Origin: Pseudomonadota bacterium
Lineage (GTDB): Bacteria > Bdellovibrionota_B > Oligoflexia > Oligoflexales > CAIMVM01
Length of the DNA: 64,000 nucleotides
NCBI GenBank assembly: GCA_037142195.1
Contig: JBAXBA010000005.1
Span: 430 to 64,429, forward strand
Direction: 5' to 3'
The notes under the pieces: generated by a model
What the model was told of the DNA's origin: nothing
Database searches by the model: none
The model's input: the letters and a program-made list of their open reading frames with translations, nothing else
Translations under genes and position numbers: made by a program
In this document: piece by piece, positions 125 to 51,014 of the stretch
How positions within the stretch are numbered: position 1 is the stretch's first letter
Layout: each line of letters begins with the position of its first letter

Positions 125-781
125 ATGAGTAATCTTATTATGTCTAACTCCCAGCTAAAAAACCCTATAGCACAAAAGTTCATGCTTTATTTGCGCTTTT
201 TAAGCACTGCCCTTCTTTTTTTTGGAACTTGGGGACCACGGGCGCATGGAGATACGATCGATGGAAAATTGGGACTAGAGCAAACGCAAGTTATTAGCAC
301 CGTTTATTTAGGTAAAGTCCTCACCACCCCCGAAGCAAGCCTCACCTACGGAAAAGAATTCGTCGATCGATGGACTCTATTTGCGGAGTATCAAACGAAT
401 TCAAAAAATACGCTTTCCGCTGGTGTTTTTGGAATTTCCTATGATTCAGAGGATCTCAGAGCCAAAGGCGGAGCCATTTATAATGATGGAAGTGCAGAAA
501 TCGTCAAAGCACCTATTTGGGTATTTAGAACGTCATTTGGCATCGGTCTATTTAAATACGTGGACATACTTAAAAGCAGCAATCCTGCATTGGGAAAACT
601 CAACAATGTCCCTGTTCAAGCGGACATGTACGGTCTAAAGTTCAGTGCTACAGGGCTCTATTTTTTAAACCCCAATTATGCCATTTCAGGATCTTTTTCT
701 TATTCTGTTGCGAGTGCTTCCAGTTTTGGAATTTCTTCTTCCGCAGCATCCTTGGGTCTATTGTATGTTTCTTTACATTAA
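125..781 (+). CDS. Exported protein, probable small outer-membrane beta-barrel
   Basis: 218 aa. Signal-peptide-like segment ending AHG-D; amphipathic strands rich in G/F/Y (FRTSFGIGLFKY, GLKFSATGLYF, ISGSFSYSV, SLGLLY). Confidence 0.6.
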   Translation: MSNLIMSNSQLKNPIAQKFMLYLRFLSTALLFFGTWGPRAHGDTIDGKLGLEQTQVISTVYLGKVLTTPEASLTYGKEFVDRWTLFAEYQTNSKNTLSAGVFGISYDSEDLRAKGGAIYNDGSAEIVKAPIWVFRTSFGIGLFKYVDILKSSNPALGKLNNVPVQADMYGLKFSATGLYFLNPNYAISGSFSYSVASASSFGISSSAASLGLLYVSLH

Positions 782-1437
782 TTGCTGCAATTTTTGACCT
801 ATTGCTTGGCATTCCTTTTCTTGCAAATTACGCGTTACTTGAATTCGCCGTTCTAGAAAATCAAATAAAAATTCACGAAGCTGTGGTTTAACAGTCTTTA
901 TCAAAAAAAATTCAGATATAAAGTTACACGCTTCATGAAGTCTTTGTCGAACCATAGAAGTAAGCTCAAATCATTTTTTAAAAAAGTATATCTAAGACAT
1001 ACCGTTTGATGTCGATTATCCATGTAACTTATTAATAGATCCTCTTTCAGTTTGTGATTAGCGACCATTTCCATCAAGCGCCAAGCAAAAAATACTGAAT
1101 CGCGCTCTCACTCTCTTTATGAAGTGTGGGTTCGGAAAATCGGTTTTTTGCGCAAAATATCTTGTTGCTCTCTGATGGCAATTAAGAATATTCTGCGTCA
1201 AACCCGGAAGATTTTGCCCGTCACGAGCGACTTTGCTTGACGCCCCATTCAAAAGTTTTGGCTACTCTCCTTCTATTGACGCGCGTTTTTCTCGCACTTA
1301 GTCAGACACCATGCCCCAAAAATATCGACATCAGATACGTAAGACTTTGGGCCAAGATTCTTTTGAGATACAATAAAAGGTGTCGCTTCTGCGCATCATG
1401 TGGGAGTGCCTTAACCTGCCTAGTACAAGGACACTGA

Positions 1438-2959: not shown

Positions 2960-5900
2960 TTACTGCGAGAGATTGAGGATTCTCGAGATCGTCCTAAAAA
3001 TCAGGCGATCGGTTTTGAAGGAGGCAAATATTTCAGGAATATTGTCATTGTTGATATCAACTACCGAGATGCTGGTTGGGTCTGCCCCTTCCCCGCCCCA
3101 TAGGGCTGGTTTACATACCCCCGCTGCGCTGCTCGTACAAGTATAGAATGACTGCCCCACATTTCCTGTCAAAGTTTGCCGGGTCATCGACACAACGACA
3201 TCACCGTAACCGTCCGCATTGACATCGCCAACATCAAGGTCTCCCACGTATCCATTTAAAGCGATATAGCTACCAACGGTGCCTACGGACAAAGAGAACG
3301 CACCTGTGCTCGCATTGGTCACCGTTAAAGTAACGTTGTTTAAAATCCTCATGGAGTTGTTTAAATCAAGTCCGCCAATGGCCACATCCATGCCGGTTGC
3401 TGTCGATGTCGTTAGACGGGCAAACTTCATCGCAGTTCCGTTAGCTCCACCAGATTGGTTGATGGTGCTTCCGGTCTGGAGCACCCAGTTAGCGTCAGCA
3501 TTACGCCGGCTAATCCAAACAGCTTGAGTGGTGTAGCACAGAGTTGCCAGCTCCGGACGGCCATCCTGGTCGATATCAATGGCTTGAATCGAGCGCGGAT
3601 CGGTACACCCATTGAGAATATTATCAATGCGTTCCGCAGAAACAAAAGATCCGTCACCGTTTCCTTTCAGCCATGCTGCCACTGGTGAGAGCCCTGAGGT
3701 TGAGTTAATACCGACGATAACCACATCGGCAATACCATCCTGGTCCAGGTCCGCAATTGCCACTGCTTTAGGTTTAATGTCCTGACCAACTCCCAGCTCA
3801 TAAAGTGCCGGTGTTGCAAAATCACCATTGCTGCCACCAAGCGTAATAGCCACCCCACGGCTGGAATACCCGACGACCACTAGATCTGGTATCCCGTCGT
3901 TATTCAAGTCACCAACATCCATAATATTTTGGTTTGGATAGGTGTTGGGATACCCTTGCTGAACCCCCATGGAATTAAAGTAAGGATCTGGGAAGCATCC
4001 GCTTGCATCGGCTGGACAGCCACCCATGCTAGGGTTGGATAAATAGGCTGGGGATGGATTGGTGGCAATACTTAAGGTTGTTGCCCCCGAACTATTCGAC
4101 ACATAAGAGCCCACAAATGACTGGCTAGGAGAAAATGCAAACATATCCATAACGTTGTCGCCATTGGCATCACCAAACTTGGTGGCACCGATATCTGCGG
4201 GCATGAGGAACGACGTTGGAAACGCATCCAACATGGCGGCGCCCTTGAGCGGATCCAAAGAGCTCGAACCATTTCGCGCATAGACAATAAAATAAGGGTT
4301 CCCTGTGTAGTGATCATGTCCGGTGAATACAATATCGCGTCGCGTAGGTACGACAGGAATGGTCAGCGTCACACCGTTTGCTGCGCTTGATCCCAGAGCA
4401 TTTTGATTGATGGTGATGGTGGATGCGCCTGTGTTAACTGCCGTTACGTAAGCATAGTTGGCAATGTTGGTTCCGGATACTGATTGTCCAACTGCAATAT
4501 TGGTTGTCGACGATACGGTCATCGTCGGGCTGCCTGCGACGGTCGTAGCAGTCGGATAGACAAAAGACGTTGAAACTAATGGAACCTGCATCAACTCTTG
4601 GTTGGCACCCGCAGGCGCTGGGTAATCGATTCTAAGCGATGGTGTGCTGGCTTCAAACGGCGTTGTGCACGTTGCTGCAGAGCATTGATTAGGAAGCACG
4701 GCAAGACAGCTTTGCTGATATTGGTAACCGCCACCGTTGATCGCAGGCATCCAATACTCGCGACCACAGGTGGCCACAAGGGCTGGATAGGAACAGCTGC
4801 TTGATCCATCGATGCAGTAGGGAATCAGCTTTGCTGCTGCAGTCGTTGTCGTACCTCGACTCTGAAGCTGAGCCGTGGAGGCAGTGCCGCCCACAAACCC
4901 ATTGCCACTTGTCGGTGTTATGTAGACTCTAATATTTGCAGAGTTTGTGTTGGCTGTGCCCATGGCAAATGCCGCATCCGAGTATCCATCATTATTAAAG
5001 TCTGATACTGCGAGACCGCCTGGCCAAGTTTGTCCCACAAGGAGTTCATCTTGGTTGTTGCTTGATGCCGTTGAATGAATTTGGAAATCTCCTAGGCATT
5101 GGCCGCCACTATAAGTTTGTCTTGCTAGATAGCCGAAGGCCGAGTTTGATCCGCCTTGATCCATGCCTAAAATGACAATCCCTGGACAAGTGTCACTGGA
5201 GTTTGCTGCGCCGAGAGTCGGTTTAGCCGCTTTAAACCAGCCAACGCCCATATTGGTTACATCTCTCATCGCACGGCTTCCCGATGAGTAAAGTATGGGG
5301 CGTGCTGCCGCGGGGCCATAAAATTGTAGGCTGCTGGAGCCGGTGACACCTGGTGAGACGAAATTATAATTCATCGTGATGGTGTAGTTACCTGCGCTGC
5401 CCGTGATGCTTGCGACGGTTGTGCCAGCTTGAATGCCAGTTCCAGAAACTTGCTGCCCGGCAAAGATCTGAGGGGAGCCAAGTGATGCCACTCCTAGAAT
5501 CGTGTTGGTATTGACTGTCACATTGCCTGTTATCGTCGTGACCGCCTGCTGGGTAATCGAAACAGCGGTTGTCGTCGCGGTAGCGTTAGCGGAAAGCGTC
5601 AGCGTATAGGGGCCGGAGCCAGAAATACCCGTGATCGTTGTGTTTACAGGTATGCCAACGCCATAAATAACAGCCCCCACCCAAAGTCCTGTGACGGACG
5701 GAACACTCGTCATGGAGCTGCCACCAGATGTGATGTTTCCTGTGGTCGTGACATAGCCCTTAAAAATCGCGGCTCGCTGACTGGCGCTGCTGCAGTTGCC
5801 GTTAACGGCACATGTATTCAACATCGCGTAGATCATGGAGTCTGCAGTCGACGTGCCTGAAACAATCAAATCTTGGCGGCCATTGTTCACGCTATCCGGT

Positions 5901-11627: not shown

Positions 11628-14600
11628 CTAATAAGAGATATTGAGTATTCTAGCGATCGTTCTGAACATCAATCGGTCCAGGTAGTAGCTTATAAACAGA
11701 TCTTCCTGACCATCGCCGTCCACATCACCTGAAGTCACTGCGTTGGCTAATATACCTTCCATTCCCCAGCTTTTTGGTTGGCATAGACCATCGCCCGTAG
11801 ACGTACAAGTGTACCAGATACTTCCTGAGTATAATAAGCTGCCAGTTTGTCGCTGCATGGGGACAATGACATCACCGCGTCCATCAGAATCAAGATCGGC
11901 TATTCCAATGTCAGAGGGATAACCAAAAAGAATTACGTAAGGCCCGTAGGTTCCCGCGGACAGTGTGAAGGCTCCCGTGGAGTTATTAATACTTGATATC
12001 GTTACCCCAGAGATCATGCGCAGCGATCTTGTTGCATCCAAGCCTGCAAGTGCGACATCGACACCAGAAGCAGAACCTGTGCTGAGTCGTCCCCATTTCA
12101 TAACAACCCCGTAGCTACCTGCTCCTGCTGCATTGATATTTGTGGCTGACGTAATCCATGATCCGCTGGGATACGCTGTGCTGACAAACCGTCTGCTCAC
12201 TATAATTTGCTGGCTTGTATAACAAATGACTGCCAACTCCGGTCTACCGTCTAAATCGATGTCAACAGCCTGCACAGACCGAGGATCTGTACAAGAACCG
12301 ACGACTCCGTCAATATTCGTCGGAGTCTGGAATGTGCCATCACCGTTTCCTTTAAATTGGCGGGCTACACCAATGCTAGCTCCTGGAGTCTTGTCAACTC
12401 CAACCACGATCAAGTCCAAGATACCGTCTTGGTCCACATCAGAAAGCGCGATGGATTGAGGTGCATTAGCCTTAAACCATAGTCCAGAGATTGTTATGGA
12501 CCCTGATGACCCTGTGTAAGCGGAAGAAAGGTTAAGTACATAAGGTCCAGACCCCGTGATGCTAGAGATGGTTGTACCTGAACCGATGCCGGTTCCGGTA
12601 ACCAATTGTCCAGCATATAAAGCTGGTGAACCAAGATTGACCAGGCCTGTAATCTGCGTGCTGTTGCTCGTAGCTGTACCTGTCACGTTAGTCGCAAATG
12701 TTCCCATTTCATAGAGTTTTGGCTGTGCGAAGTCACCATAAACAGATCCCATGGCCGTCGATACTCCGCGACTCCAGTATCCAGAGACCACGGCATCTGG
12801 AATGCCGTCTTGATTGAGGTCGCCCGTATCCAAAATGTTTTGATTGTTATAAGTATTTGGATAAGTTTGTTGCACGCCCAGCGAATTAAAAACAGGATCT
12901 GGGAAACAAGACGCCGCATCGGTTGGACAGCCGTTTTGTGAGGGGTTAGCCAGGTAATAAGGAGCGGGTCCTACGCCTACGCCGGTACTCACACCAACTG
13001 AGTTTGAAACATAAGATCCCATAAAGGACTGCTGTGGAGAGACCGTATAAAGGTCCAATAGACCATCCCCATTAGAGTCACCCATGCGCATCGTGCCAAT
13101 GTCGGCCGCCTGTAAATAAGCTCCAGGAAACGAATCTAGCATTGTTGCCGCCTTAAACGGATCCGTGGTGCTTGATCCATTGCGGGCAAATACAGTGAAA
13201 TACGGGAACGAATATCCTGCATCCGTAGAAATGGTGGCGACATCAAGCCTTGTGGGAACAGACGGCACTGAGATTTTTACGCCCGTTAAGGTTGATCCGG
13301 TCACTGCTGGTTGATTGATCGTTATGGTACTTCCCGAGGCATTCGTCACATAGGAATAGGGAGGAATCACCGACTGTGGAATGACTATGGCAGCACTGCC
13401 CTGTGCGGCAATCGCGCCAAAATTCATGGTGATAGAGTTCACTGTTTTTGATACGACGTAGTTATTTGCCAAAAGCGCCACACAGTTCGCCGTGACGCAG
13501 GTCACTGGCTGGCCGATTTGGATGTTGGTTGTACTAGAAAGTCCAGTAATCGTCGCACTTCCATTTGTGATCGTCGCCCCAGTCAAATAAACGGGAGCAA
13601 CTGCTGCTTTTCGTGAGGTGATCGAAACATTGGTCGCAGAAGCTGTACCGAGCATCGTTTGGTTTAAGGTAATGGTGCCGGATGCGACTGCTGTAATAAA
13701 GGTATTAGCCGGGATCAATGCACAATTGGCTGTCATGCACCTGATCGCTTGACCAACTTGCAGCTGGGATGTGATCGATGTGGAAATATTAGTAATCGTG
13801 TTCGTGTTTTTCACATCCCCTGAGAATGTCAGAAAGCTATCTGCACAAGCGTCATCAATGCACATTAGGGGCTGACCTGTTTGGATACTGGCGATGGAGG
13901 ACACAGCCGTGATGCTCGTACTTGCATTTGTGATGGTGCCATTGGGTGTCAGATTGCTGGTCGAGACTAGGGGAGCAGGAAATAAATAACCGTTGTTGGG
14001 GCCAGGATAATCAATCCTCGCGGCTGGAGTCGCATTCTCAAAGGGGGTCGAACAGCCGGGTGTTGAGCACTGGTTGGGAATCACGGAAAGACATCCATAA
14101 TTTTGCGTTCCTGACGCGTTGGTTCCTCTGGTACATTTAGCGACCAGTGACGGATAGCTGCAGCTTGCGGAACCATTAAGACAGTAGCTGAGCAATGTAT
14201 CGCCTCCAAGATAGCTTGCGCCGCGACTTTGTAGCTGAGTAGTAAACGAGTTGCCTCCTGAAAAGCTATTGCCCGTATTACCGTTAATATATCCACGAAT
14301 ACTTGCGGATGTTCCCATGTTTTGCGATAACGACGTCACAACATCCGAGATGCCATCACTATTAAAGTCATCGACCGCGATCCAAGAGGGGTAAGCGCCA
14401 CTTCCGGAAATCAGATACTCGTCAGAAGCGTTATGGGTCGTAAAATCACCGGCACACTGGCTGCCTGTCCAGGTCTGGCGAACCACGTACCAGTAGCTAA
14501 AGCTGTTGTTTCCATTCCAGGTTCCTGCGACGACAACGCCCGGACAATCATTGACGCTTTGAGCTTTAACCGTCGGTAGGTTTGGTTTTGCCGCAATGAA

Positions 14601-17600
14601 CCAACCGATTTTGATATCATAGATGTAAGATAGACCCATAGAGCCACTTACAAGGGGCGTATGGGCGTTAGGTCCAAAGACCAAAATGGATGTGGCTGCA
14701 CTCGCCGAAGCGGCACTGGACATCGTGACGCTCGTATTGGCCACGATAGAGACTACGGTAGATCCTGCAGGAAAATTCCCCCCAGAGACCGATTGACCGA
14801 CGCTGATCCCAGCAGTGGAAGCAGTGGTGAAGGTACTCGAGTTTAAGGTGCTATTGCCAGTCAGAGTGTTGCCTGTCGGCCAAGAGATGCCAACGCCTGA
14901 AGTATTGGAGCTGGCATTTTGTGACATGGTAATACACGGCGTGGTGCCGCAGCCCGAGTTGACAGCGGTGATGGTTGTATTTGCTGGAATGTTTGCGCCG
15001 ATTACGGGTAGGCCAACCGCAAGGCCCGTGCTGCTTGTCAGAGAGTTGATGGTATTACCGCTTGTGGTTCCCGTGGCCGCGGCATAATTACGAAAAATCG
15101 TCGATCTAGAAGCGGTACACGCTCCATTGACCGCACAGTTGTTATAGAGCATGAAGAACGTTCCTTGGTTGTTACCATTCATGGAGGTCACGATGATGTC
15201 TTGTTTACCGTAGTTAGTTGCATCTGGTCTTAAATTGTTGGTGACCGAAAATGTATAAGGATAGTTGTTACTATTAGCGCCCGTAGGAATCGGGAAACAA
15301 TCGGTATTGCCAGCGGAAAATCCGCTCGGCATCCCGTAGGAATCGACGTTGACTAAGCCTCCGCTGCCAGCATTCCACATCACACAGATCATTTTGTTAG
15401 TGGTATCATTATAGAGAATATCCTTGTATCCATCTTGATCCATGTCGGCCACACGCACGTTCAAGGGCGTGATGGCATTGGGACGGGAGGGCAAGGGAAC
15501 GTTAATCGTGACAATCCCAGTTCCAGCCAAAGGCACCCGACCTGTGGAGTCAATTTTTGCGATCTGGAGTGACCGTGGAGTCGTGTCTGTGCGTTGGGAG
15601 ATGAGAAATTGTTGTGAGGTGTTGGTTATTGCGTCTATCGTTGCAGTTCCTGGGTTGCACTGGGTGCTGCCTGTGCAAGGATCAGATACGTGGGCGGATT
15701 TTAAATCAAGTGTTTTACCGGTTGCGCGAATCGTGAGCGAGAGATTTTTTGTACCGGTAAAGCCATATTGATCGGTGATGGTAATACCGACCGTATAGGT
15801 TCCAGAGGCAGTGGGTGTGCCGTAAATTCTTCCTGTCGTCGCACCATAAGCGAGCCCGCTTGACGTAAGTCCAGTAACCGCATAACTCAGCTGCGTCGCG
15901 TTAGCGCCGGCGGTTAATAGATTCACACCGCCTGTGCGCTTGATGTCGTAGGCATAGGGCACGCCTACGACAGCTGCGGGCATGACTGATCCAACCACTT
16001 TAGGTGGCACCGTAATATTTATAGTGAAGCTGGCAGCCGAGGAAACATTGCCGATCGTATCCCTTGCAGTGACAGCAAACGTATAACCCCCCCCATAACT
16101 GGCTGCGAGATTGCTTGGTGTTCCAGAAATCAAGCCATCAGAGGACATAGAGAGTCCTGGAGGCAAAGAACCAGATGTAATTTTGTAGATATAAGAATTG
16201 CCCGGCGCCTGACCGCCCGAAGCAGCTAACTGAACGCCGCTGCCATTATTGTAGGGCACACCAACGGCACCTCGCACCAGGGTGGTGCCCGTTAGGGTGA
16301 CTAAATTAATGACGGAGATCTGAAAGGTTCTCGTACTCTTAAGCGGCGGTGTAGAGCTGTCGCTAATGGTGATGTAAAGTGTGTAGATGCCAGGTGCCGC
16401 GGACACGCCTGTGGATTTTAGCTCACCGGTAGCGGAAACGAGGCTAAAACTATTTGGTAAATTTGTCGCCGAGTAAGTGAATGGCGAGGTCCCCCCAGAA
16501 CCCATCATGGTTGTGGAATAACTAGGTCCGACGATGGCGGCAGGGAGTCCACCGTTTGTGATCAAAACGCCGTTGAGCGCTGTAATGCATTTGATGGACG
16601 CCGCTGAGATCTGCGACAAGGCGTCTGTAACCCTGACCGTGAATTGCCCAGCAGGACAGCTAACCAAAGTGGTTGGAATGCCGGATATGGTTCCAGAATC
16701 AGCGATCGTCAAACCAGCAGGTAAAGATCCACCTGTCACAGCAAAGGCATAGGGTGCACGACCTCCGGTGGCTGTTACCGTATAGGAATAAGCTGACCCA
16801 AGAACTCCCGAGTCAGGGGTGAAAGCATCAACTTCGGGGCTGCTTACAACCGTGCGCAGCGCCAAAGTAACGGGCGTGCTGATACGATTGAGCGCATCAC
16901 GCGCACGAACGGTGATGCTGGTTGAAGTGCCTGGCGAAACGCCTCCTGTATTCACAGCAGGTGTGCCAAAGAATACCCCCGTGGATGTCAATCCCATTCC
17001 GGAAGGCAAAGTTCCCGTGTACTCAAATGTATAGGGCCCGGTACCGCCAGTTGCCGCAAGTGCCGTCGACGCGTTGGAATAGGCGATCCCCTCGGTGGCT
17101 GGGGATAGTGATGATGTCGTCACCGAAACCACAAAAGAGCTCGTGGTAAACGAGTATGTCGAGCTGGTTTGCACACCGTTGGCATCAGTGCTTTTGATGG
17201 TGAAGTTCCTTGTGAGTCCAGCCTCAGATTCTGCAATCGTGCCGCCAAGAGATCCATTGGAAGAGTTGAGCGCCAGACCAGAAGGAAGGTTACCAGACGT
17301 GCGTGCATAGGTGTAGGGTGCCTGACCTCCTGAAGAGGCCAGGTAAACACTGTAGGCGCCCCCTGGAGCTCCGTCAGGAAGAGACGCTGGCAGCAACGTG
17401 GTCAAATAGTCGCCCACGGTGCCGGTGTAGGTTTGCTCACTGGTCAAACTGTTACTATCGGTGACTCGAATCACAAAAAGATAGGATGAGATTCTAGCAC
17501 TTTTATTGACCGTGCCAGAAATCCCTCCCGTTGCGGAGTTTAAAGTCAAGCCACCAGGAAGACTGCCTGAGCTGACTGAGAATGTATAAGGCGATGTTCC

Positions 17601-24239: not shown

Positions 24240-27200
24240 ATGCTCAAGTTCTTAGGCGTTTTGGTATTTTTAATAGCAACGCTATCATGCAGCAAGCAAG
24301 CGCTACAGCTATCTACGTCTAAAGGGGATTCCATTAAAGATCCCACTGCTGGCGACGCCTCCAGTGAAATTAGCTATTCTGGCGCTCTCATGATTGATAG
24401 CATTAAGAGCGAAATGGTGGCCATGCGCTATTCCTTAGATCAGATAACCACTGTCGTTAATGCTGCCAAAACGGAAGTCAGCCTTGCTAGCAACTTATCC
24501 ATTGAAAGCAGCCGGGAACTTTCCCTCGATGGGGAAGGGAAAAGCCTCAGAATGGCTTCCATCGCTGTCGCCAAAGGATCTATTCGAGCACTGAAGGAAA
24601 CTTCCCTACCGGAAGATGCAGGCATTCTGTTTCAGCTGGCTAACAGTGCTAGACCAGAACAACTGAGCATGGCCACGATTATTAAGGGCCAAACCAAAGG
24701 CATGGGTCTTGTAAAATCTCGAGGTAAAATCGCCGGCATGAGTTCTGTGGTATTGGCCCAAGCTACTTCCGAAATGGCTTCCACAGCGCTGAGCACCGGA
24801 GCTAAAACTGGCATGATCACGAGTGATAATGCACCGCAAATGATCTCAGCCATTGCGAAAAGTTTATTTGGGAACTTAAAAAGCACCAGCATGGAATTAG
24901 ATGCTGAGAAGATCATTCCTTCATTTTCTAACTCTCTATCCGGACTTAAACAAGTCAATCTCCTTAAAGAAGCACTGATTCTCGTCACTCAAAGCATGAT
25001 TTCTGAAAGTATTTCTGGTATTAAAGCCAACAATCTTGAAAGCATGACCGCGGAAATTCTTCCTAATATTATATCCAACACTATGGTAGGCACCTATTCT
25101 GTTGCAGGCTCTAGTGAAAACTTTGCATCAGCTGCTGCTGAAGTCGGAAAAAGCGCTCTTTCATCAGTCAATCAACTAGGACTGATAAAGTCTAAAGATG
25201 ATGGATCCACTTTCGCGACACTCGTGTTTTCATCAAGCATAAAGTCAATGGATAAGATTCCCGATTGGAATGTAGATCAGCTCACCAATATCGCAGTCGC
25301 GATGCAGCAAAAAGCTATGGAATCCGCCAAAGATCTTGGCTTTTCTGGAAATGACACCGCTGATATTTTAGTGAACGCGACCGTATCTATGGTGAAAAGC
25401 ATGGGAGCTCTTGATCGGATACAGGATTTGGTAGTTGCTAACGACACTTTGACTCAATCCTTTAATCGTGTCACAGAAGCCACAACGAAAGACCTGAGCT
25501 CCAGCATTGAAGGTGTGAGTAAGGACTATAGCGCGGCCATGCAAACCGCAGTAAGCACTGCTGCGACTGAGGGTGCAGCGACCTCTCCCACTGTTCAGCC
25601 CACCCAGCCCGCACCGGTTCCTGGCCCAACACTAGCCATACCTACTTTGATTACCCGTGTGGCGCCTACAATGAATAGATCCATAGGCAATGTCGTGGCG
25701 TTTACGATAGGCAGTGCCGTACCCGGTCAAACTATCAAATTCTACTCGGACAGCAGTTGTACTACTCTTCTGGGACAAGGCGTTTACACCTCTTCAGCTG
25801 TAACGCTTCCTATCACTCTAGCTGCCCCTGGGGCCTACTTTTTCTATGTGAAGTCTTTTGATGCCAGTCTTAATTTTTCTGCTTGCGCCAATACGGGTGA
25901 GACTTATGTCCTGGACAACTCTGCGTCTTCACCTTCCGCTACTCTCGTTTCGCCCTCGGCTGTCGTAGGAAACAGCAATCTAGTTACGCTGGGCCTGTCT
26001 ATGCTAGAGGCAAATGCTACGGTGGAAATCTATAGCGATAGCCTTTGCGCGTCCTCCTTACTCGGCAGCGCTGTAGTGACAAATTCCTCACAAAATTTAA
26101 CCGCGGTTCTTCCAAGCACTGGAATGTATAACTTCTACCTCAAACAAACGGACGATTTAGGCAATGCGAGCCCTTGTGTAAACTCGGGGCTTTCCTATTT
26201 ATATGACACGACGCCCCCATCAAACCTATCATTAAGCCTTGTGAACCCTTCTACGTCACCTTCAAATCTCAATACCATCACGTTAAGAGCCAATGGCACG
26301 GAGCCCAATAGTACAGTCTTCCTCTATAACAGCGCTAGCTGTATCAGCACTCCCCTGTCATCTAAGCCAGGCATCTCAGGCTCAACAGACTTCCCCGTAA
26401 ATGGTCTTTTGGAGGGATCTAATCTGTTCTATGCTAAACAAGTTGATGCTGCAGGAAATGCTTCTTCTTGTTCCCCTGGTTTATCTTATATTCTAGACTC
26501 TACTCCGCCCCAGCTTCCAGTTGTCACACTAGAGGCTGGCCAAGCCCCCTTTTCCTCCAGCTCCAGTGTGAATCTCAGGATAAACCTGGCCGAGACAGGG
26601 GGAACCTTAAAAATCTATTCCAATAGCACTTGTACGGCACTTCAGACCACTTTAACCGCATCTAGCATGTCAATGCCCGTGGTACTTTCTGCTCAAACAG
26701 AAGGCCCCCACACCTACTACGCTACTCACACCGATAGTCTTGGAAATACTTCTGCCTGCAGCACAAGTTTTGCTTCCTGGACCAAAGACTCCGTCAGTCC
26801 TACACCACCTCAATTGAATGCAGCCACAAGCCCAGCGGGCCCAAGCGCAACGACAAACATCACTGTAAGCGGAACCGCAGAGGCATTTTCTACTGTGCAA
26901 CTCTATAGTGATGCGGCTTGTTCGACAGCACTCACTGGTCAAAGTCAGACCTCGGGTTCAGGATCTTTTTCTGTACCATTTAATATCCCAACACCTAATT
27001 CCACCTATATGTTCTTTGCAAAGGCTGTCGATCAAGCTCAAAACTCCTCAGGCTGCAGCACAACCAGTGCAAGCTACATTCACAATTCTAGCATTCCTTC
27101 CGTTATAAACGTCTCCAGTTCGACCAGCTCCAACCTGACAGTAGGGGGCACGATCGATATATCCGTAGTGTTCTCTGAATCCGTTTATGTTTCGGGATCA

Positions 27201-30200
27201 CCACGCCTAGAATTAGAACTAGGTTCCAGTCCAAAATATGCCTACTATCTCTCCGGTTCTGGAACATCTGTCCTGCTTTTTCGCTATACGGTTGTAAGCG
27301 GCGACAATACCAACGACCTTGATTACAAGACACCGAGTGCTCTTTCCACTAATGGCGGAACCGTAAAAAATGTTTCACCTGTCGATGCTGTTTTAGCTCT
27401 TCCAAGCCCTGGGACCCCGAACTCTCTTGGCTTCAATCAAAATATCAGAGTAGATACAACATCGCCCATGATTTCAACTATCTTATCTCAATCCACCCTT
27501 GAAGATATACCGTTGAGCCCCATTTCCTATACGATCACTGATGCAGGAAATATTTTAGATTGCGTGTCTTCAGTGACCGTTACCACAAGTAATCCGAGCG
27601 TGCTTCCTCTTGCAAATATAATCAAATCAGGTCAAGCACCCAATTGCCTCTTGACCCTCGTCTCTGAACTAAATAGCTTCGGAGCGTCTACTGTTACCGT
27701 CACCGTAAATGATGGAATCACGGCTGCTGCTTCTACAAGTTTCCTGTTCTCAGTCACTTCCGTAAATGATCTGCCTTCCATTTCCGACGTTGCCGATCAG
27801 TCCATGAATGAGGATGGACCTGCAATGAACCTTTCTGTCGTCATTAATGATGTCGACAATAATCTTAATTGCAACACTTCACTTTCTGCAACTTCCAGCA
27901 ATTCCACTCTCATTTCAAATTCATCTATAGTCTTTTCTGGCACTGCTCCCAACTGCTATGTTTCTTTGACTCCTAGCCCTAATCAGAATGGCACGGCCAT
28001 CATCACCCTAAGCGTCACCGATGGCTCGGCAACGGCTATGGATACTTTTGTTTTAAATGTCATCCCGGTTAATGACCCACCCACGATTTCTTCCTTTCCA
28101 AGTCAGGTTATGATGAATGAAGACTCTACAGCAATTGTCAATGTCCTATTAAACGACATCGACAACAGCCTCCCCTGTTCCGCATTAACGATTACAAACT
28201 CGTCAAACTCGGCTCTTCTGCCTCCTACATCGCCCAACATAGTTATGGGCGGAACAGCTCCCAACTGCACTTTAACATTGAATCCAGCTCTCAACCAAAA
28301 TGGTTCCTCAACCATTAGCATGAATGCCTTTGATGGAACCACTACCTCTGGAACGGTGAACTTCAATGTCAACGTCACTCCCGTAGATGATCCTCCAACT
28401 ATACCGGCAATCCCCCCGCAAGTTGCTATATTAGGATTTGCAAAAACCTTCACGTTTCCAGTCAACGATGTGGATTCCACAGTAAGCTGTATTTTCTATG
28501 CCCCTACTAGCTCAAATACGGCGGTAATTACGAGCGCACACATAGCCCTCGCGTCAGGAGGTACAAATTTTTGTAGTGTGACGATCAGCGCTATGGGACC
28601 ATCCCCTGGAAATAGCAACATTACCGTAACCGTAAAAGACGATACGAGTGTGGCTACCCAAACTTTCAATATCACTATTACGAAACAATGGTATCAGGAA
28701 GCTTATATTAAGGCGCCAAATTCTCTTTCAGTATCCTCCCTTAACTTTGGTCGGTCCGTATCTCTTAACGATTCCACATTAGCTGTCGGAGCTGAGTTTG
28801 AAGGGAATGCCCAATCGAACATAACTCCCACAATTACTACGAACACAAACTCTATGGCCAACGCTGGAGCTGTTTATGTGTTCGGAAGAACAGGAACGAA
28901 TTGGTCCATTCAGTCATATATCAAGGCATCCAACAATAGAGCAGGCAACTATTTTGGAAATGAAGTCTCCCTTTCCGGAGACACTCTGGCTGTTGCGGCT
29001 TATCAAGAGGGATCTCAACAAACCACCATAACGACCGGCATAACCAACAATACGGCGAACGGCGCCCTAACTTCCGGAGCTGCCTACATTTTTAAACGAA
29101 CGAGCGGCAATTGGAGCCAAGAAGCGTTTATCAAACCTAACAATTCCGAGAGCCAAGATTTCTTTGGGCAGTCTATAAGCCTCAGTGGAAATACTTTGTT
29201 GGTGGGAGCTACTCAGGAAGATTCCAGCGAGTCCACCATCACCCAGACAGCATTGACTACTAACAACTCGTATGCCCAATCAGGCGCAGCTTACCTATTT
29301 AGCCGTATGGGGACGATCTGGACTCAAGATGCCTACATAAAAGCTTCAAACGTAGGAGCTGATGACTACTTTGGTGAGCCGGTTGCCATTTCGGGAGATA
29401 CGATTGCTATTGGTGCTTGGAACGAAGCGAGTTCTCAAAACACTATATCCAATACGACAGCGCCTGCAAGCCCTGATAATAGTGCTACTGGGTCAGGAGC
29501 CGTCTACATATACCGAAAAGATGCGGTTAATCAGTGGAGACAAGAAGCCTACATCAAGGCAAGTAACGCCGAGCAAAATGACAACTTCAGCAGCAGCTTG
29601 TCTTTATCGGGAAATATGTTAGCCGTCGGCTCCCCGATGGAAAGTAGCAACCTCACCACCATTAGCTTCGGAACTGCCTTTACCACTAACAATTCCAGTC
29701 CAGGCTCAGGTGCCGTATATATGTTTAATAGATCCGGAAGTGTTTGGTCCCAGCAAGCCTATATAAAAGCTTCTAACAACCGCACCAATAATCGTTTCGG
29801 AGATCAACTTTCCTTATCTGGCTCGACTTTAGCTGTAGGTGTGATGCTTGATGACAGCAATCAAACCACCATTACTTATGGCCCGCCTGCAAGTACAAAT
29901 TTAAACATGTCAGAGTCGGGCGCTACTTTCCTCTATAAATACATCTCCGGAAGCTGGTATGAAAAGAATTATATCAAGCCTGCCAATACGCATAATGCGG
30001 ACAACTTCGGTTTCTCCATATCACTTTCAGGGGACTCTTTAGCAGTAGGAGCCCCCCAAGAAAGCAGCAATCAAACTACCATTACAAATGGATCTCAACC
30101 GAGTCCCAACATAAGTCTTCCCAACTCTGGAGCGACTTATATTTACAGAAATATGGATATTGCGGCTGACCCTGATCTTAGAATCATCGCAAAAACAAGT

Positions 30201-30446
30201 ACCAGCATCACCTTGGCGTGGAATCCCAATTTAGGGTATGCGACTCAAGTTAGAATTGTACCTGCCATCTTGGGTGACGCCGATCCTCAAGACTGCAATG
30301 CTACCCAATACATCCTTTTGAATCCTGGAGTAAACACTTACCTTTACCAGGGACTCAACCCCTCGATGCGTTATGGTTTTAGAGTGTGCGCTAATAATGG
30401 AACGACCACACCGGGAAGCGTGATTTGGGAATCGACGACCCCTTAA
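24240..30446 (+). CDS. Giant surface lipoprotein 3 (2068 aa): helical N-region, Ig-like and cadherin-like repeats, 7-blade FG-GAP_2 propeller, C-terminal FN3-like domain
   Basis: Lipobox TLS-C; ~430 aa A/S/M-rich helical region; P/T linker. Five Ig repeats each carry YSDxxC...DxxxNxSxC, followed by one VxFSExVxVxGxPxL Ig domain and four VNDxP cadherin-like repeats. Then seven WxQxAYIK..FG..SLSGxTLAVGA blades and a TSITLAW...GLNPSMRYGFRV FN3 signature. Confidence 0.9.
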   Translation: MLKFLGVLVFLIATLSCSKQALQLSTSKGDSIKDPTAGDASSEISYSGALMIDSIKSEMVAMRYSLDQITTVVNAAKTEVSLASNLSIESSRELSLDGEGKSLRMASIAVAKGSIRALKETSLPEDAGILFQLANSARPEQLSMATIIKGQTKGMGLVKSRGKIAGMSSVVLAQATSEMASTALSTGAKTGMITSDNAPQMISAIAKSLFGNLKSTSMELDAEKIIPSFSNSLSGLKQVNLLKEALILVTQSMISESISGIKANNLESMTAEILPNIISNTMVGTYSVAGSSENFASAAAEVGKSALSSVNQLGLIKSKDDGSTFATLVFSSSIKSMDKIPDWNVDQLTNIAVAMQQKAMESAKDLGFSGNDTADILVNATVSMVKSMGALDRIQDLVVANDTLTQSFNRVTEATTKDLSSSIEGVSKDYSAAMQTAVSTAATEGAATSPTVQPTQPAPVPGPTLAIPTLITRVAPTMNRSIGNVVAFTIGSAVPGQTIKFYSDSSCTTLLGQGVYTSSAVTLPITLAAPGAYFFYVKSFDASLNFSACANTGETYVLDNSASSPSATLVSPSAVVGNSNLVTLGLSMLEANATVEIYSDSLCASSLLGSAVVTNSSQNLTAVLPSTGMYNFYLKQTDDLGNASPCVNSGLSYLYDTTPPSNLSLSLVNPSTSPSNLNTITLRANGTEPNSTVFLYNSASCISTPLSSKPGISGSTDFPVNGLLEGSNLFYAKQVDAAGNASSCSPGLSYILDSTPPQLPVVTLEAGQAPFSSSSSVNLRINLAETGGTLKIYSNSTCTALQTTLTASSMSMPVVLSAQTEGPHTYYATHTDSLGNTSACSTSFASWTKDSVSPTPPQLNAATSPAGPSATTNITVSGTAEAFSTVQLYSDAACSTALTGQSQTSGSGSFSVPFNIPTPNSTYMFFAKAVDQAQNSSGCSTTSASYIHNSSIPSVINVSSSTSSNLTVGGTIDISVVFSESVYVSGSPRLELELGSSPKYAYYLSGSGTSVLLFRYTVVSGDNTNDLDYKTPSALSTNGGTVKNVSPVDAVLALPSPGTPNSLGFNQNIRVDTTSPMISTILSQSTLEDIPLSPISYTITDAGNILDCVSSVTVTTSNPSVLPLANIIKSGQAPNCLLTLVSELNSFGASTVTVTVNDGITAAASTSFLFSVTSVNDLPSISDVADQSMNEDGPAMNLSVVINDVDNNLNCNTSLSATSSNSTLISNSSIVFSGTAPNCYVSLTPSPNQNGTAIITLSVTDGSATAMDTFVLNVIPVNDPPTISSFPSQVMMNEDSTAIVNVLLNDIDNSLPCSALTITNSSNSALLPPTSPNIVMGGTAPNCTLTLNPALNQNGSSTISMNAFDGTTTSGTVNFNVNVTPVDDPPTIPAIPPQVAILGFAKTFTFPVNDVDSTVSCIFYAPTSSNTAVITSAHIALASGGTNFCSVTISAMGPSPGNSNITVTVKDDTSVATQTFNITITKQWYQEAYIKAPNSLSVSSLNFGRSVSLNDSTLAVGAEFEGNAQSNITPTITTNTNSMANAGAVYVFGRTGTNWSIQSYIKASNNRAGNYFGNEVSLSGDTLAVAAYQEGSQQTTITTGITNNTANGALTSGAAYIFKRTSGNWSQEAFIKPNNSESQDFFGQSISLSGNTLLVGATQEDSSESTITQTALTTNNSYAQSGAAYLFSRMGTIWTQDAYIKASNVGADDYFGEPVAISGDTIAIGAWNEASSQNTISNTTAPASPDNSATGSGAVYIYRKDAVNQWRQEAYIKASNAEQNDNFSSSLSLSGNMLAVGSPMESSNLTTISFGTAFTTNNSSPGSGAVYMFNRSGSVWSQQAYIKASNNRTNNRFGDQLSLSGSTLAVGVMLDDSNQTTITYGPPASTNLNMSESGATFLYKYISGSWYEKNYIKPANTHNADNFGFSISLSGDSLAVGAPQESSNQTTITNGSQPSPNISLPNSGATYIYRNMDIAADPDLRIIAKTSTSITLAWNPNLGYATQVRIVPAILGDADPQDCNATQYILLNPGVNTYLYQGLNPSMRYGFRVCANNGTTTPGSVIWESTTP
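28689..30153 (+). repeat. Seven FG-GAP_2 (integrin-alpha-like) repeats forming a beta-propeller
   Basis: Blades begin WYQEAYIK, WSIQSYIK, WSQEAFIK, WTQDAYIK, WRQEAYIK, WSQQAYIK and WYEKNYIK. Confidence 0.85.
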
Positions 30447-48173: not shown

Positions 48174-49112
48174 ATGATGAAAATACTTGGAATTGCACTG
48201 GCAGTCGTTTTGGTGTCTGGCTTAAGTTTGGCAAATCCGCCCAGACCACATCATTCCGGCGAAGCCCCGTGGAGGGAGCCTCTGTCGGAAGATCGGTCAA
48301 AAGATTTTTCCGTCCGAGAGGCTAATGGAGAGAAAATTGTCGTAGATAACTTCTTAGGAATGGAATGGGCTGGAAAAGCCTCAGAAAACTTGGATTGGTA
48401 TGGAGCTTATGACTATTGTGAAAAATCAACCTATGCAGGATATTCTGATTGGCGTCTACCCACCTACTGGGAGATGATTAGTATTCAGTTGAAGTATACA
48501 AAGGAACAAGGGGTCTATCCTATCTTTTCGCATTTAAAAGGCAAAAGAGCCATTTGGTCAAGCGATGATAGTGTTTCCATTGATCAGCCGGACTGGGATG
48601 ATCGCTGGGCGCTATTTGTTGAGCCCGGCTTGGTTACTTTTGAATTAATTAAGGAAGAATACACTGCGCAATGTATTAGAGGTGAAGAAAAGCCAGCAGC
48701 TGGCCCACAGGGACAAGATCGGTATAAAGAGATACAGCCAGACCTTATTTTAGATACAAAAGCTAATTTGCTTTGGACCGGCCCTAGAAATCCTAAAGTT
48801 AGTAAAGAACTGCTCTTTACTGATGTTGAGAATTGGTATGTTGCTAATCTTTGGTGCGAGGATTTAGTATTTGCTGGGCGATCGGATTGGCGTTTGCCCC
48901 GTTTAGATGAAGTCGTCATTATTGGTGATTTAAGAATCCCTACAGTTTTTACCAGCATGCCTAAAATCCCCAACTCTCCCCTAGGTTTTTGGACGTCTAG
49001 CGCGGCCATTAATCCCGTCGGTCCCGCGAATTGGATTGTCGATCTTTTAGGACAGGCCTATGTTCATAGTAAAGAAGAAAAGCATATATTTGGTTGCGTC
49101 CATTCAAATTAA
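48174..49112 (+). CDS. Secreted protein with two DUF1566 (Lcl C-terminal) domains
   Basis: Signal peptide; two copies of D..xxL/MxW...W..A..xC......G.SDWRLP..xE...W(S/T)S...xCI/V. Confidence 0.8.
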   Translation: MMKILGIALAVVLVSGLSLANPPRPHHSGEAPWREPLSEDRSKDFSVREANGEKIVVDNFLGMEWAGKASENLDWYGAYDYCEKSTYAGYSDWRLPTYWEMISIQLKYTKEQGVYPIFSHLKGKRAIWSSDDSVSIDQPDWDDRWALFVEPGLVTFELIKEEYTAQCIRGEEKPAAGPQGQDRYKEIQPDLILDTKANLLWTGPRNPKVSKELLFTDVENWYVANLWCEDLVFAGRSDWRLPRLDEVVIIGDLRIPTVFTSMPKIPNSPLGFWTSSAAINPVGPANWIVDLLGQAYVHSKEEKHIFGCVHSN

Positions 49113-49121
49113 GGAGGATTT

Positions 49122-50648
49122 ATGAAATTTCTATTATTTGCACTTATAATTTCATCGCCAGCTTTTGCAGAAAAAGTAGTTGTATTTAAAGATCATATTC
49201 AGACTTTGCCCGCAGAATTTGTGCGATCCCAGGATGCAAGCACTTACACCGTTAAAAAATACTGGAATACGCCTCGATTTGCAATTCAGTCTCTTCCCGA
49301 TAATCCATGGGAGAACGCAAAGCGACAGAAAAATTTAGCTGTTCTTTTAAAAGACACAGCTGATTTCGGAGCAATCCCCAAAAATGGCATCAAGTCAATT
49401 GAGGAAAATACTCCCTATCAAGAAGAAGATTTTTTGGGGAATGATCATTTTGATCCCGTCAGTTGCCCGGGAGTTATCTATGGATTCCATCATTATTCAG
49501 AAGCGACTCAGCGTTTAGAATCTGCTACATCCTGTGACGTTTATTCCATTAGACCTAGTGGGCGATGGCAGTACACAATCAATGTTGTCTCTTCTACGCC
49601 CAAGTTAATCGAAGTTTTTGAACATGGGTCCAAGATCGGTGAATCAAGAACGGGAAAGATTGAATTAAATTTCAACTATGGCTATCGTCAGCGCTATTTT
49701 GTAATCTCTGGTTCGCCTGGAGAATATCGGACAAATATTTTCCCTACAAAAGCCAATCGCTCCAAAGAGAAATTAGTCAATTTTGCATTCTCAGATCAAT
49801 TTTCAAATGCTTACGGCTTTGGGGTTCCTAATTCTGTAAAACTTATGGGTCCAACCGCTAATACATCAAAATATATTGGCGCTAACATGATGGCAGCTGA
49901 AAGTTTTTGGACAAAAGGCTTTAAGGGCAAAGGCATTAAAGTAGCGGTTGTGGATACAGGCATTGATGCGCGTCATCCTCTATTGGAGGGTGTAGTGCGA
50001 AGTGGCATTGAAATCTTCGGCATGAACACATCTCCTGAGGATTTTGATGATTTCTATGGACATGGAACTCATGTTGCTGGAATCATCCACCAAGTAGCTC
50101 CTGAAGCAGAAATCATGGCGGTTCGTGTTTTTGATGAGACTCAAGATACCGGAGTGGAAACTCTCTCCAAAGGAATCAGATGGGCCATCGATAACGGCGC
50201 TAATGTGATTAATTTGAGCTTAGGCGGGCCGGACGGTTCAAAGGATTTTAAAAAGATCTTTGAATATGGCGTCTCAAAGGGAGTTTTATTTGCTATTGCA
50301 ACTGGAAACGAAAGAGGCTTTGTTCCGCTCTTTCCTGCTATTTATGCAGGTGACCTTCCAGGACTAGGATTGGCGGTCGGCGCCGCCAATGCATGGGGCA
50401 ACATAGCACCCTTTTCAAACTGGGGTGGAAATAATTTGAATATGAAAATGGCTACAAGCCATGGTGTGGGTGTATCATCGGCTAAATTCCATACAGACGA
50501 AATGGTCAATATGTCTGGAACTTCCATGGCATCGCCCCAAATCGCAGGCATTCTGGCTTTGTATAAAAATGCGTTTCCTAATCTCAAAAATCAGGAGCTT
50601 GTGGATTTGATTTCTAAGAATGTAGTTCGAGCAGCTGTTGATGATTGA
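49122..50648 (+). CDS. Secreted subtilisin-like serine peptidase (S8)
   Basis: Catalytic triad motifs VAVVDTG, HGTHVAG and GTSMASP; oxyanion ATGN; signal peptide; AGGAGG RBS immediately after the previous stop. Confidence 0.92.
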   Translation: MKFLLFALIISSPAFAEKVVVFKDHIQTLPAEFVRSQDASTYTVKKYWNTPRFAIQSLPDNPWENAKRQKNLAVLLKDTADFGAIPKNGIKSIEENTPYQEEDFLGNDHFDPVSCPGVIYGFHHYSEATQRLESATSCDVYSIRPSGRWQYTINVVSSTPKLIEVFEHGSKIGESRTGKIELNFNYGYRQRYFVISGSPGEYRTNIFPTKANRSKEKLVNFAFSDQFSNAYGFGVPNSVKLMGPTANTSKYIGANMMAAESFWTKGFKGKGIKVAVVDTGIDARHPLLEGVVRSGIEIFGMNTSPEDFDDFYGHGTHVAGIIHQVAPEAEIMAVRVFDETQDTGVETLSKGIRWAIDNGANVINLSLGGPDGSKDFKKIFEYGVSKGVLFAIATGNERGFVPLFPAIYAGDLPGLGLAVGAANAWGNIAPFSNWGGNNLNMKMATSHGVGVSSAKFHTDEMVNMSGTSMASPQIAGILALYKNAFPNLKNQELVDLISKNVVRAAVDD

Positions 50649-50676
50649 TTGATAGTTGTAAAAGTAAAAGTATCGT

Positions 50677-50706
50677 CCGAGCTGGCTTCTCACCAGCTCG
50701 GTTTCT
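50677..50706 (+). terminator. Probable rho-independent terminator
   Basis: Perfect 9-bp stem CCGAGCTGG-cttctca-CCAGCTCGG followed by TTTCT, just after the S8 stop. Confidence 0.65.
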
Positions 50707-51014
50707 AATCTTGTATGTTTGCAAATAGCTGTTTAAGCGTCTATCTATGCCTACTTATGCGCCGCTCCCAAAACATGCATATTCCAGTTCCGAAAATCGA
50801 CGAGAACATATGACTATAGCAACAGTAAGGCTAGATAACTTTTTGCTATCTTTTGTAACCTATAATAACAACGAACACACATAGTTCTGTTACTACTTAC
50901 TGATAGATAATCGGCTCTCCCCAATTGAGGATTGATTTTGAAAGAAATGGTGTGGCACACTCATAATTATAAAGTTTCAATGAAGAAACTGGGTCGTCTT
51001 TCAAGGAGGAATGA

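Follow-up and report, generated by a model that had tools for sequence, protein, structure and literature searches.

How a small protein module can come to lie split around two further modules of its own kind is the question raised by one of two adjacent giant genes in a 64,000-nucleotide (nt) stretch of DNA, called here the window, from a Pseudomonadota bacterium of the order Oligoflexales (contig JBAXBA010000005.1). Both genes are open reading frames (ORFs) on the minus strand. P0001 (11628..20603) encodes a putative lipoprotein of 2991 amino acids (aa), and its neighbour P0002 (2960-11320) encodes a protein of 2786 aa; they correspond to paralog 2 and paralog 1, respectively, of an earlier note on this DNA, in which a module of P0001 was described as interrupted by two complete modules. 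The answer that we regard as probable is that of a nested insertion, host and guest domains being of one family and the chain running through strands 1-3 of a host barrel (M1), a first guest barrel (M2), a second guest barrel (M3) and finally strands 4-6 of M1.

The segment in question, 13263-13952 on the minus strand, encodes residues 2218-2447 of P0001, and its translation reproduces exactly the coordinates and internal boundaries given earlier. A hidden Markov model (HMM) of 66 positions was derived from the eight intact Thr/Ser/Gly-rich modules, of about 66 aa each, found in both paralogs, with the split module excluded. Within the segment, this profile matches P0001 four times: at residues 2222-2249 with profile positions 3-30 (independent E-value 2.7e-6, 14.8 bits), at residues 2258-2330 and 2340-2410 with the full profile, positions 1-66 (3.6e-23 and 1.5e-21, respectively), and at residues 2413-2446 with positions 32-66 (3e-5, 11.5 bits). 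The two partial matches are thus complementary halves of one profile and flank two full copies, which bears out the claim that a host module is split with two complete copies inside it. The first half, A1 (aa 2218-2257, LTPNG...CIDDACADSF), comprises strands 1-3 of M1 and is encoded at 13833..13952, followed by M2 with its linker (aa 2258-2339, 13587..13832), M3 (aa 2340-2411, 13371..13586) and the second half, B1 (aa 2412-2447, VIPPYSYV...KISVP, 13263..13370), which comprises strands 4-6 of M1 and runs on into VPSVPTRLD, the return strand of a propeller. Written as half-modules, the order is A, AB, AB, B (A A B A B B). The insert of 154 aa compares with a host of about 77 aa, the guests together being twice the size of the module that holds them.

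Comparison of the two paralogs locates the insertion at the same place. BLASTP aligns residues 5-2244 of P0001 with 26-2279 of P0002 and then residues 2406-2634 with 2275-2510, leaving in P0001 a surplus of about 161 residues whose position coincides with the insertion point. At this site P0002 carries, as had been reported, a single unbroken module (aa 2256-2322, encoded at 4355..4555 on the minus strand), matched over profile positions 1-66 with an independent E-value of 2.8e-23, and B1 aligns with the B half of this module at 46% identity over 48 columns (E 4e-6). The P0002 module has the turn GTNI where P0001 has CIDDAC and the insert. The CIDDAC loop of M1 (13845..13862) ends five residues before the insertion point, and the guests carry equivalent loops, CMTANC in M2 (13722..13739), between strands 3 and 4, and CVTANC in M3 (13482..13499), all three on the minus strand. 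In M1, M2 and M3 alike, CxxxxC takes the place of a G-x-[GN]-[IF] turn found in the other six modules, and the translations agree with the earlier observation that three such loops replace the usual turn and that the insertion follows just after that of the host.

Of 8000 candidates scored in a search with the region, 15 proteins passed E ≤ 0.001, and the HMM was then run on 16 proteins. The nested order is found in 8 of these (P0001 and P0003-P0009, about 3000 aa long and 60-89% identical in the region), a single unbroken module occupies the site in 7 (P0002, P0010-13, P0015 and P0016), and one relative of about 2000 aa, P0014, has two modules in tandem at residues 1480-1540 and 1551-1610. 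All six cysteines (C57, C62, C98, C103, C178 and C183 of alignment A2) are invariant in the eight nested proteins. Because all eight orthologs, which come from separate sources, share both the order and the six cysteines, the self-nested insertion at residues 2218-2447 is confirmed as a real pattern, neither chance nor an assembly artefact. An exhaustive phmmer search of residues 2100-2560 against 1.84 billion representatives gave 14 proteins at E ≤ 0.001, 11 of them new. Five of the new proteins (P0017-P0021) have one unbroken module after a RIDY anchor; in P0022 the module is present and the anchor could not be placed; four (P0023 and P0025-27) are uninformative on the site. In the distant P0024 (824 aa), the anchor and the return strand are joined directly at about aa 370-400, …PIVTSG running straight into LNDVALIG…, an apparent empty site. 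Over the 27 proteins, the site is therefore nested in 8, filled by one unbroken module in 12, occupied by a tandem pair in 1 and empty in 1.

In searches of genomes and metagenomes, a 285-aa segment containing the nest was not found at E ≤ 1e-5 in 60 related genomes (2 of the same genus and 58 of the same order); among genome contigs it matched one locus, in an Oligoflexales metagenome-assembled genome, at 64% identity over all 285 residues, and among metagenome contigs only a 33% match to one module was obtained. A six-frame scan of the genome from which the window comes (16,090 ORFs of at least 60 aa) gave no module outside P0001 and P0002. In the literature, no paper on this type of protein was found among the matches listed.

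For the nest, residues 2192-2476 of P0001 were folded with AlphaFold2 from an alignment of the eight proteins that share the nested order, and of five models the best one was retained. A different alignment, which included un-nested relatives and set their B half on the B half of M2, was judged to be a misalignment that would have biased the folding and was not used. The retained model has a mean predicted local distance difference test score (pLDDT) of 75.6 and a predicted template modelling score (pTM) of 0.61, with values below 50 only in the propeller-derived flanks and 48 disordered residues. M2 and M3 are each predicted with six strands, that is as complete barrels, and a short helix lies at the CxxxxC of M2 (model residues 101-105). 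A1 is predicted with strands at model residues 30-33, 39-41 and 54-57 (block pLDDT 83-88) and B1 with strands at 227-232, 235-238 and 248-255 (77-90); A1+B1, M2 and M3 agree in their strand pattern, and the strands of A1 and B1 map one-to-one onto those of the intact P0002 module. In the VIA-align comparison, a match to the I-domain of the P22 coat protein spans model residues 21..261 with 78 aligned residues (Z 5.0), a size equal to that of A1+B1. Because the two halves are homologous to unbroken modules and both contain confidently predicted strands, A1 and B1 would be expected to close into one barrel. A complex prediction of A1 (A2 columns 27-66) with B1 (221-257) scored 0.17 and 0.19, below the mark of 0.32, which is evidence neither way. 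Of the three domains of one fold, one of them discontinuous, that the earlier note had proposed to look for in a predicted structure, the two guest barrels and the strands of both host halves were thus obtained, while the discontinuous barrel itself is one that we infer.

The nest sits within a larger scaffold. Both paralogs contain 17 stretches of the Ig-like He_PIG family in Pfam (6.2e-150 for P0001) and C-terminal FG-GAP/FG-GAP_3 repeats (in P0001, 3.6e-24 for FG-GAP_3 and 4.7e-19 for FG-GAP). Their N-termini, read directly from the translations, resemble a signal peptide with a lipobox, the lipobox-like motif in P0001 being, by eye, ...GFALHAC followed by SGK. Seventeen He_PIG repeats and a distinct FG-GAP terminal domain make up a fibrillar adhesin-like architecture, with the stalk and terminal domain that define it both present. 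P0001 is accordingly predicted to be a giant surface protein anchored by an N-terminal lipid, with a He_PIG stalk and a head of two FG-GAP propellers, and this propeller region bears six barrel modules. The description of the nest as a tip is plausible in so far as it would sit on the C-terminal double-propeller head, far from the N-terminal anchor.

An AlphaFold2 model of P0002 residues 1653-2786 (16 rows in the alignment; pLDDT 67.8, pTM 0.62) is matched by VIA-align to known beta-propellers over two stretches, roughly model residues 1..714 and 708..1134, with Z 24-27, integrin alpha chains being among the matches (Z about 23-25.6). The unbroken counterpart of M1 lies at model residues 604-670, with six strands and a block pLDDT of 76-88, and propeller strands are predicted before (579-594) and after (677-695) the module, inside the range of the first propeller. 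Because of this position and of the empty site in P0024, the model shows M1 itself as a predicted insert in a hairpin of propeller 1. The full nesting, as part of the same-family insertion and held with the same fairly high confidence, would run from the propeller to M1 and from M1 to M2 and M3.

No Pfam family, the endosialidase barrel included, matches the barrel module in whole proteins at E ≤ 0.1, and its fold was approached by structural comparison. The nearest solved structure is the decoration protein of phage Bridgette (8eci), which VIA-align superposes on M2 (model residues 64-146) with Z 9.1, a root-mean-square deviation (rmsd) of 2.3, 74 aligned residues and 26% identity. It is also the sole match of the module profile in the PDB (E 0.0068, 19.7 bits), which is borderline for homology. 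In the phage, dimers of this protein, gp7, attach around the capsid pentamer (bioRxiv 10.1101/2022.09.09.507160). M3 (model residues 145-221) is matched by a tail-tube domain of phage Mystique (9n71; Z 8.3, rmsd 3.0, 74 aligned). With Z between 4.7 and 7.7 follow other phage proteins, namely the tail-spike inserts of LKA1 gp49 and the K1 lyase (4ru4 and 7w1c, both 7.7), the barrel within the endosialidase propeller at residues 255-338 of 4hiz (5.2) and the P22 I-domain, as well as the cellular Uba1 FCCH, ribosomal protein L3, domain 2 of EF-Tu, riboflavin synthase and the N-terminal barrel of F1-ATPase. The last four are RIFT-type neighbours (Z 4.7-6.8); for L3 and a number of translation factors, a RIFT barrel of two-fold pseudo-symmetry has been described (PMC11258233). 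The predicted barrel resembles these six-stranded pseudo-twofold barrels, a likeness to be taken as a lead and not as a classification.

Other searches returned less. Foldseek gave nothing for the nested model in the PDB at E ≤ 0.001, the small barrels being picked up only by VIA-align. In BFVD it gave 41 matches at E ≤ 0.001, mostly to phage fibre or structural proteins, with TM scores of 0.2-0.33 and rmsd above 10 Å, which support phage-like barrel arrays and no more. A PHROGs scan of eight modules produced weak matches (best 3.7e-4), no family matching more than two of the eight. In the ESM Atlas, the recognition score did not reach a useful level, the closest clusters being without a name.

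Together, these results allow a mechanism to be proposed. Copies from M1's own lineage would have been inserted between strands 3 and 4 of M1, just after its CxxxxC loop. A barrel whose termini are adjacent could be spliced into a loop, and in a pseudo-twofold barrel the seam between the three-strand halves would be the symmetry mate of the gap between N- and C-terminus, and hence a place naturally suited to take up a copy. Tethered at both ends, the three barrels might then stay together on the propeller head in a compact cluster, offering three binding surfaces at one site. In a protein predicted to be exported, the Cys pairs are most simply read as disulfides, which would stiffen the crossover between strands 3 and 4. 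The earlier note went further and suggested that a disulfide-stapled loop tolerates insertion; the staple may be the cause of this tolerance, although M2 and M3 carry CxxxxC without any insert in all eight orthologs. By likeness to the barrels of phage decoration proteins, tail spikes and endosialidases, the ligands would probably be glycans or other surface structures.

The origin of the guests was addressed with an IQ-TREE phylogeny of 76 modules over only 66 columns, the split hosts being joined in silico. M2 (100/100), M3 (100/98) and the split hosts (99/95) each form a supported clade, that of the split hosts adjoining the unbroken host modules. On the evidence of this tree, the guests are derived from the host-site lineage, because host-site modules, M2 and M3 together form one clade (97/86) apart from the other modules of the family (a, b, f and g, described below); an earlier FastTree run gave the same clade with SH support of 0.87. 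The shared motif suggests that the guests were copied after CxxxxC had arisen. The modules are mutually 17-44% identical (M2 and M3, 28%), and the only direct repeats in the DNA of 13100-14100 are a 29-nt and a 16-nt imperfect pair; low module identity and the lack of a long repeat in the DNA indicate that the duplication is old rather than recent. The order A A B B, with halves of one kind side by side, implies a non-tandem in-frame copy or two steps, not a single tandem duplication. The nesting seems to have arisen once, and the states that survive in relatives are the empty site (P0024), one module (12 proteins) and the tandem pair (P0014).

Several observations weigh against this account or parts of it. 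The alignment behind the nest model is thin (8 rows), and the five models spread from pLDDT 48.9 to 75.6. The model enters as strand assignments, confidence values and structural matches, so that the pairing of A1 with B1, the arrangement of the three barrels towards one another and the bonding of the cysteines are presumed rather than seen. Z values of 5-9 are in a range that VIA-align calls common for small barrels, which weakens the RIFT assignment, and the function is assigned by analogy only. Within the clade of hosts and guests, branching support is 62-81%, and the tree does not join the guests to the split hosts in particular. Homologs with none, one or two nested copies had been suggested as a check, and those with two (8 proteins) and those with none were recovered, while a protein with exactly one nested copy occurs in 0 of 27. 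Finally, conservation among the nested orthologs is somewhat lower in the host halves than in the guests (62% and 70% mean pairwise identity, respectively).

A broader reading, possible but rather doubtful in our judgement, takes the barrel of about 66 aa as a self-compatible building block, the family growing by intragenic copying and insertion into loops. Any copy could then accept any other, since the geometry of the seam would be that of the terminus gap. Such a rule would cover the propeller loops that hold modules a/b, c, f and g as well as the mid-seam of c, it would be the same growth rule as in the Si3 insertion of RNA polymerase (see below), now in a bacterial adhesin, and the conserved CxxxxC would be an adaptation that keeps the opened seam rigid.

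It is unlikely, although it would account for the lower conservation of A1 and B1, that the host barrel is dead, its halves no longer folding together and serving as mere linkers or strand extensions of two barrels on a stalk. Invariant columns number 12/40 and 12/37 in the host halves and 33/81 and 31/73 in the guests, the profile scores of the halves are low (14.8 and 11.5 bits), and the unseen contacts noted above leave room for such a decay. However, both halves keep their profile positions in register, 3-30 and 32-66, they are as conserved as the flanking propeller strands (59-72% mean identity), and their strands are predicted with pLDDT of 77-90, which is unusual for unpaired three-strand pieces. 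Their one-to-one correspondence with the strands of the intact paralog module, and the tight clade formed by the split hosts next to the unbroken host modules, likewise argue for a host that is still a barrel.

Another arrangement of the same strands, in which A1 is completed by part of M2 or M3, or in which halves are exchanged, possibly between molecules, appears improbable to us. All A and B halves are homologous (22-44% identity), so that mispairing is chemically conceivable, and RIFT-type barrels can form from two separate chains (PMC11258233). However, AlphaFold2 and VIA-align give contiguous complete barrels at model residues 64-146 and 145-221; M2 and M3 being complete on their own, only A1 and B1 are left to pair, and the pTM of 0.61, reached with 48 residues disordered, speaks for an ordered placement of the parts. 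An ordinary tandem array of circularly permuted units with its boundary at the CxxxxC loop, which the earlier note had named as the scenario that would overturn its claim, is most improbable of all and is excluded by the half-module order: the same module does occur in tandem elsewhere (modules a and b, and residues 1480-1540 and 1551-1610 of P0014) and MAFFT can place the B half of un-nested relatives on that of M2, but A and B must alternate in any such array where A A B A B B is observed, the alignment with the paralog is taken up again at B1 rather than at the B half of M2 and continues into the propeller, and for M2 as for M3 one solved barrel matches the whole length of the module.

Beyond the nest, P0001 contains further barrel modules. 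Modules a and b (aa 1841-1978, 14670..15083 on the minus strand; HMM matches at 1843-1908 and 1914-1977) form a non-nested tandem pair in propeller 1. Module a (14877-15083, minus strand) has a different Cys pair, SGCGTTPCITM, a C-x5-C in the loop after strands 4-5, which is present at the level of the consensus across the family alignment, and further C-x4-C pairs, such as QCSTPGC, occur a short way before the nest, within the propeller. Module f (aa 2640-2708, 12480..12686 on the minus strand; HMM 1-66, independent E-value 4.7e-19) adds one more barrel to a loop of propeller 2. It is absent from P0002, where BLASTP leaves a gap between P0001 residues 2634/2715 and P0002 residues 2510/2517. 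Module f is found in P0001 and its seven nested orthologs, P0002 and the relatives of about 2000 aa being without it, and in the tree it clusters with module b of P0002, a grouping that suggests another intragenic copy-and-insert event. A seventh module, g, is present in four of the eight nested orthologs (P0005 aa 1684-1750, P0006 1698-1764, P0008 1699-1763 and P0009 1697-1764), at a further site that precedes modules a and b; in the tree it falls within the module-a clade. Across the family, the number of modules per protein ranges from 3 to 7. The extra tandem copy of P0014 groups with module-a types, outside the host-site clade. In P0015 and P0016, the host-site module has a longer turn between strands 3 and 4 (…IYISTNYTYGNGIP…), without cysteines and without a domain insert, so that the length of this loop varies in other lineages too.

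Elsewhere in the window, a third giant ORF (24240-30446, plus strand, 2068 aa) combines FG-GAP_2 (6.1e-58) with Big_9, and the module HMM finds no barrel module in it. A run of predicted secreted-type proteins, including a protein with an Lcl_C domain, a subtilase (Peptidase_S8) and a papain-family peptidase (Peptidase_C1), is encoded at 48174-52508 on the plus strand.

Nesting of one fold within itself is already documented structurally, in Si3 and in myosin X, and the P0001 nest opens no long-standing question. According to a 2026 survey, domain insertion occurs in 20% of multidomain proteins, 65.8% of the events joining different homology groups; nesting reaches six levels in cyanobacterial RNA polymerase, and inserts are generally smaller than their hosts (PMC13114784). 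Si3 of the beta' subunit of that polymerase consists, in its crystal structure, of eight sandwich-barrel hybrid motif (SBHM) domains, of which SBHM-2 to -5 are discontinuous (PMC10895346). As in the P0001 nest, copies of a small beta domain lie inside one another, and the whole set is inserted in a loop of the host. However, the repeated unit is the sandwich-barrel hybrid motif rather than the six-stranded barrel of P0001, and no SBHM was found among the 50 VIA-align matches listed; Si3 is moreover cytoplasmic, part of an enzyme and much more deeply nested, whereas P0001 has one level with two guests in a predicted extracellular adhesin-like protein, and Cys-pair loops. The PH1N-PH2-PH1C unit of myosin X is described as a rigid supramodule with juxtaposed binding pockets (PMC3216653), and so shares both the self-nesting and the functional logic proposed for P0001. 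It differs in being eukaryotic, cytoplasmic and of the lipid-binding PH fold, with a single guest, whereas P0001 has two tandem guests that make an insert twice the size of the host.

Two further systems resemble the scaffold and the module. The barrels of phage virion proteins (phi92 endosialidase 4hiz, LKA1 gp49, the Klebsiella K1 lyase, the P22 I-domain and 8eci) are small and six-stranded like those of P0001, and likewise sit in scaffold loops, in one case those of a propeller, with roles in surface display; they are single insertions in virion hosts and not in a copy of themselves, whereas P0001 is a putative bacterial lipoprotein. Integrin alpha chains with an I domain also use an FG-GAP propeller as a scaffold, with a ligand-binding domain placed between blades or strands. 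The I domain has a von Willebrand A fold and occurs once, non-nested, whereas the P0001 family combines two propellers with as many as seven small barrels.

What is particular to P0001 is the combination of a bacterial adhesin-like lipoprotein as host, a module without Pfam annotation, Cys-pair loops in all three copies and two tandem guests that together are twice the size of the host, with relatives in the empty, single and tandem states. An insert of this size runs against the rule of smaller inserts given in the survey (PMC13114784). The Pfam-less barrel module links a bacterial surface protein to the barrels of phage decoration proteins and tail spikes, and a single propeller loop of this family offers a natural series, empty, with one barrel, with a tandem pair and with a barrel holding two others inside it, in which the tolerance of a domain to insertion of its own copies may be studied.

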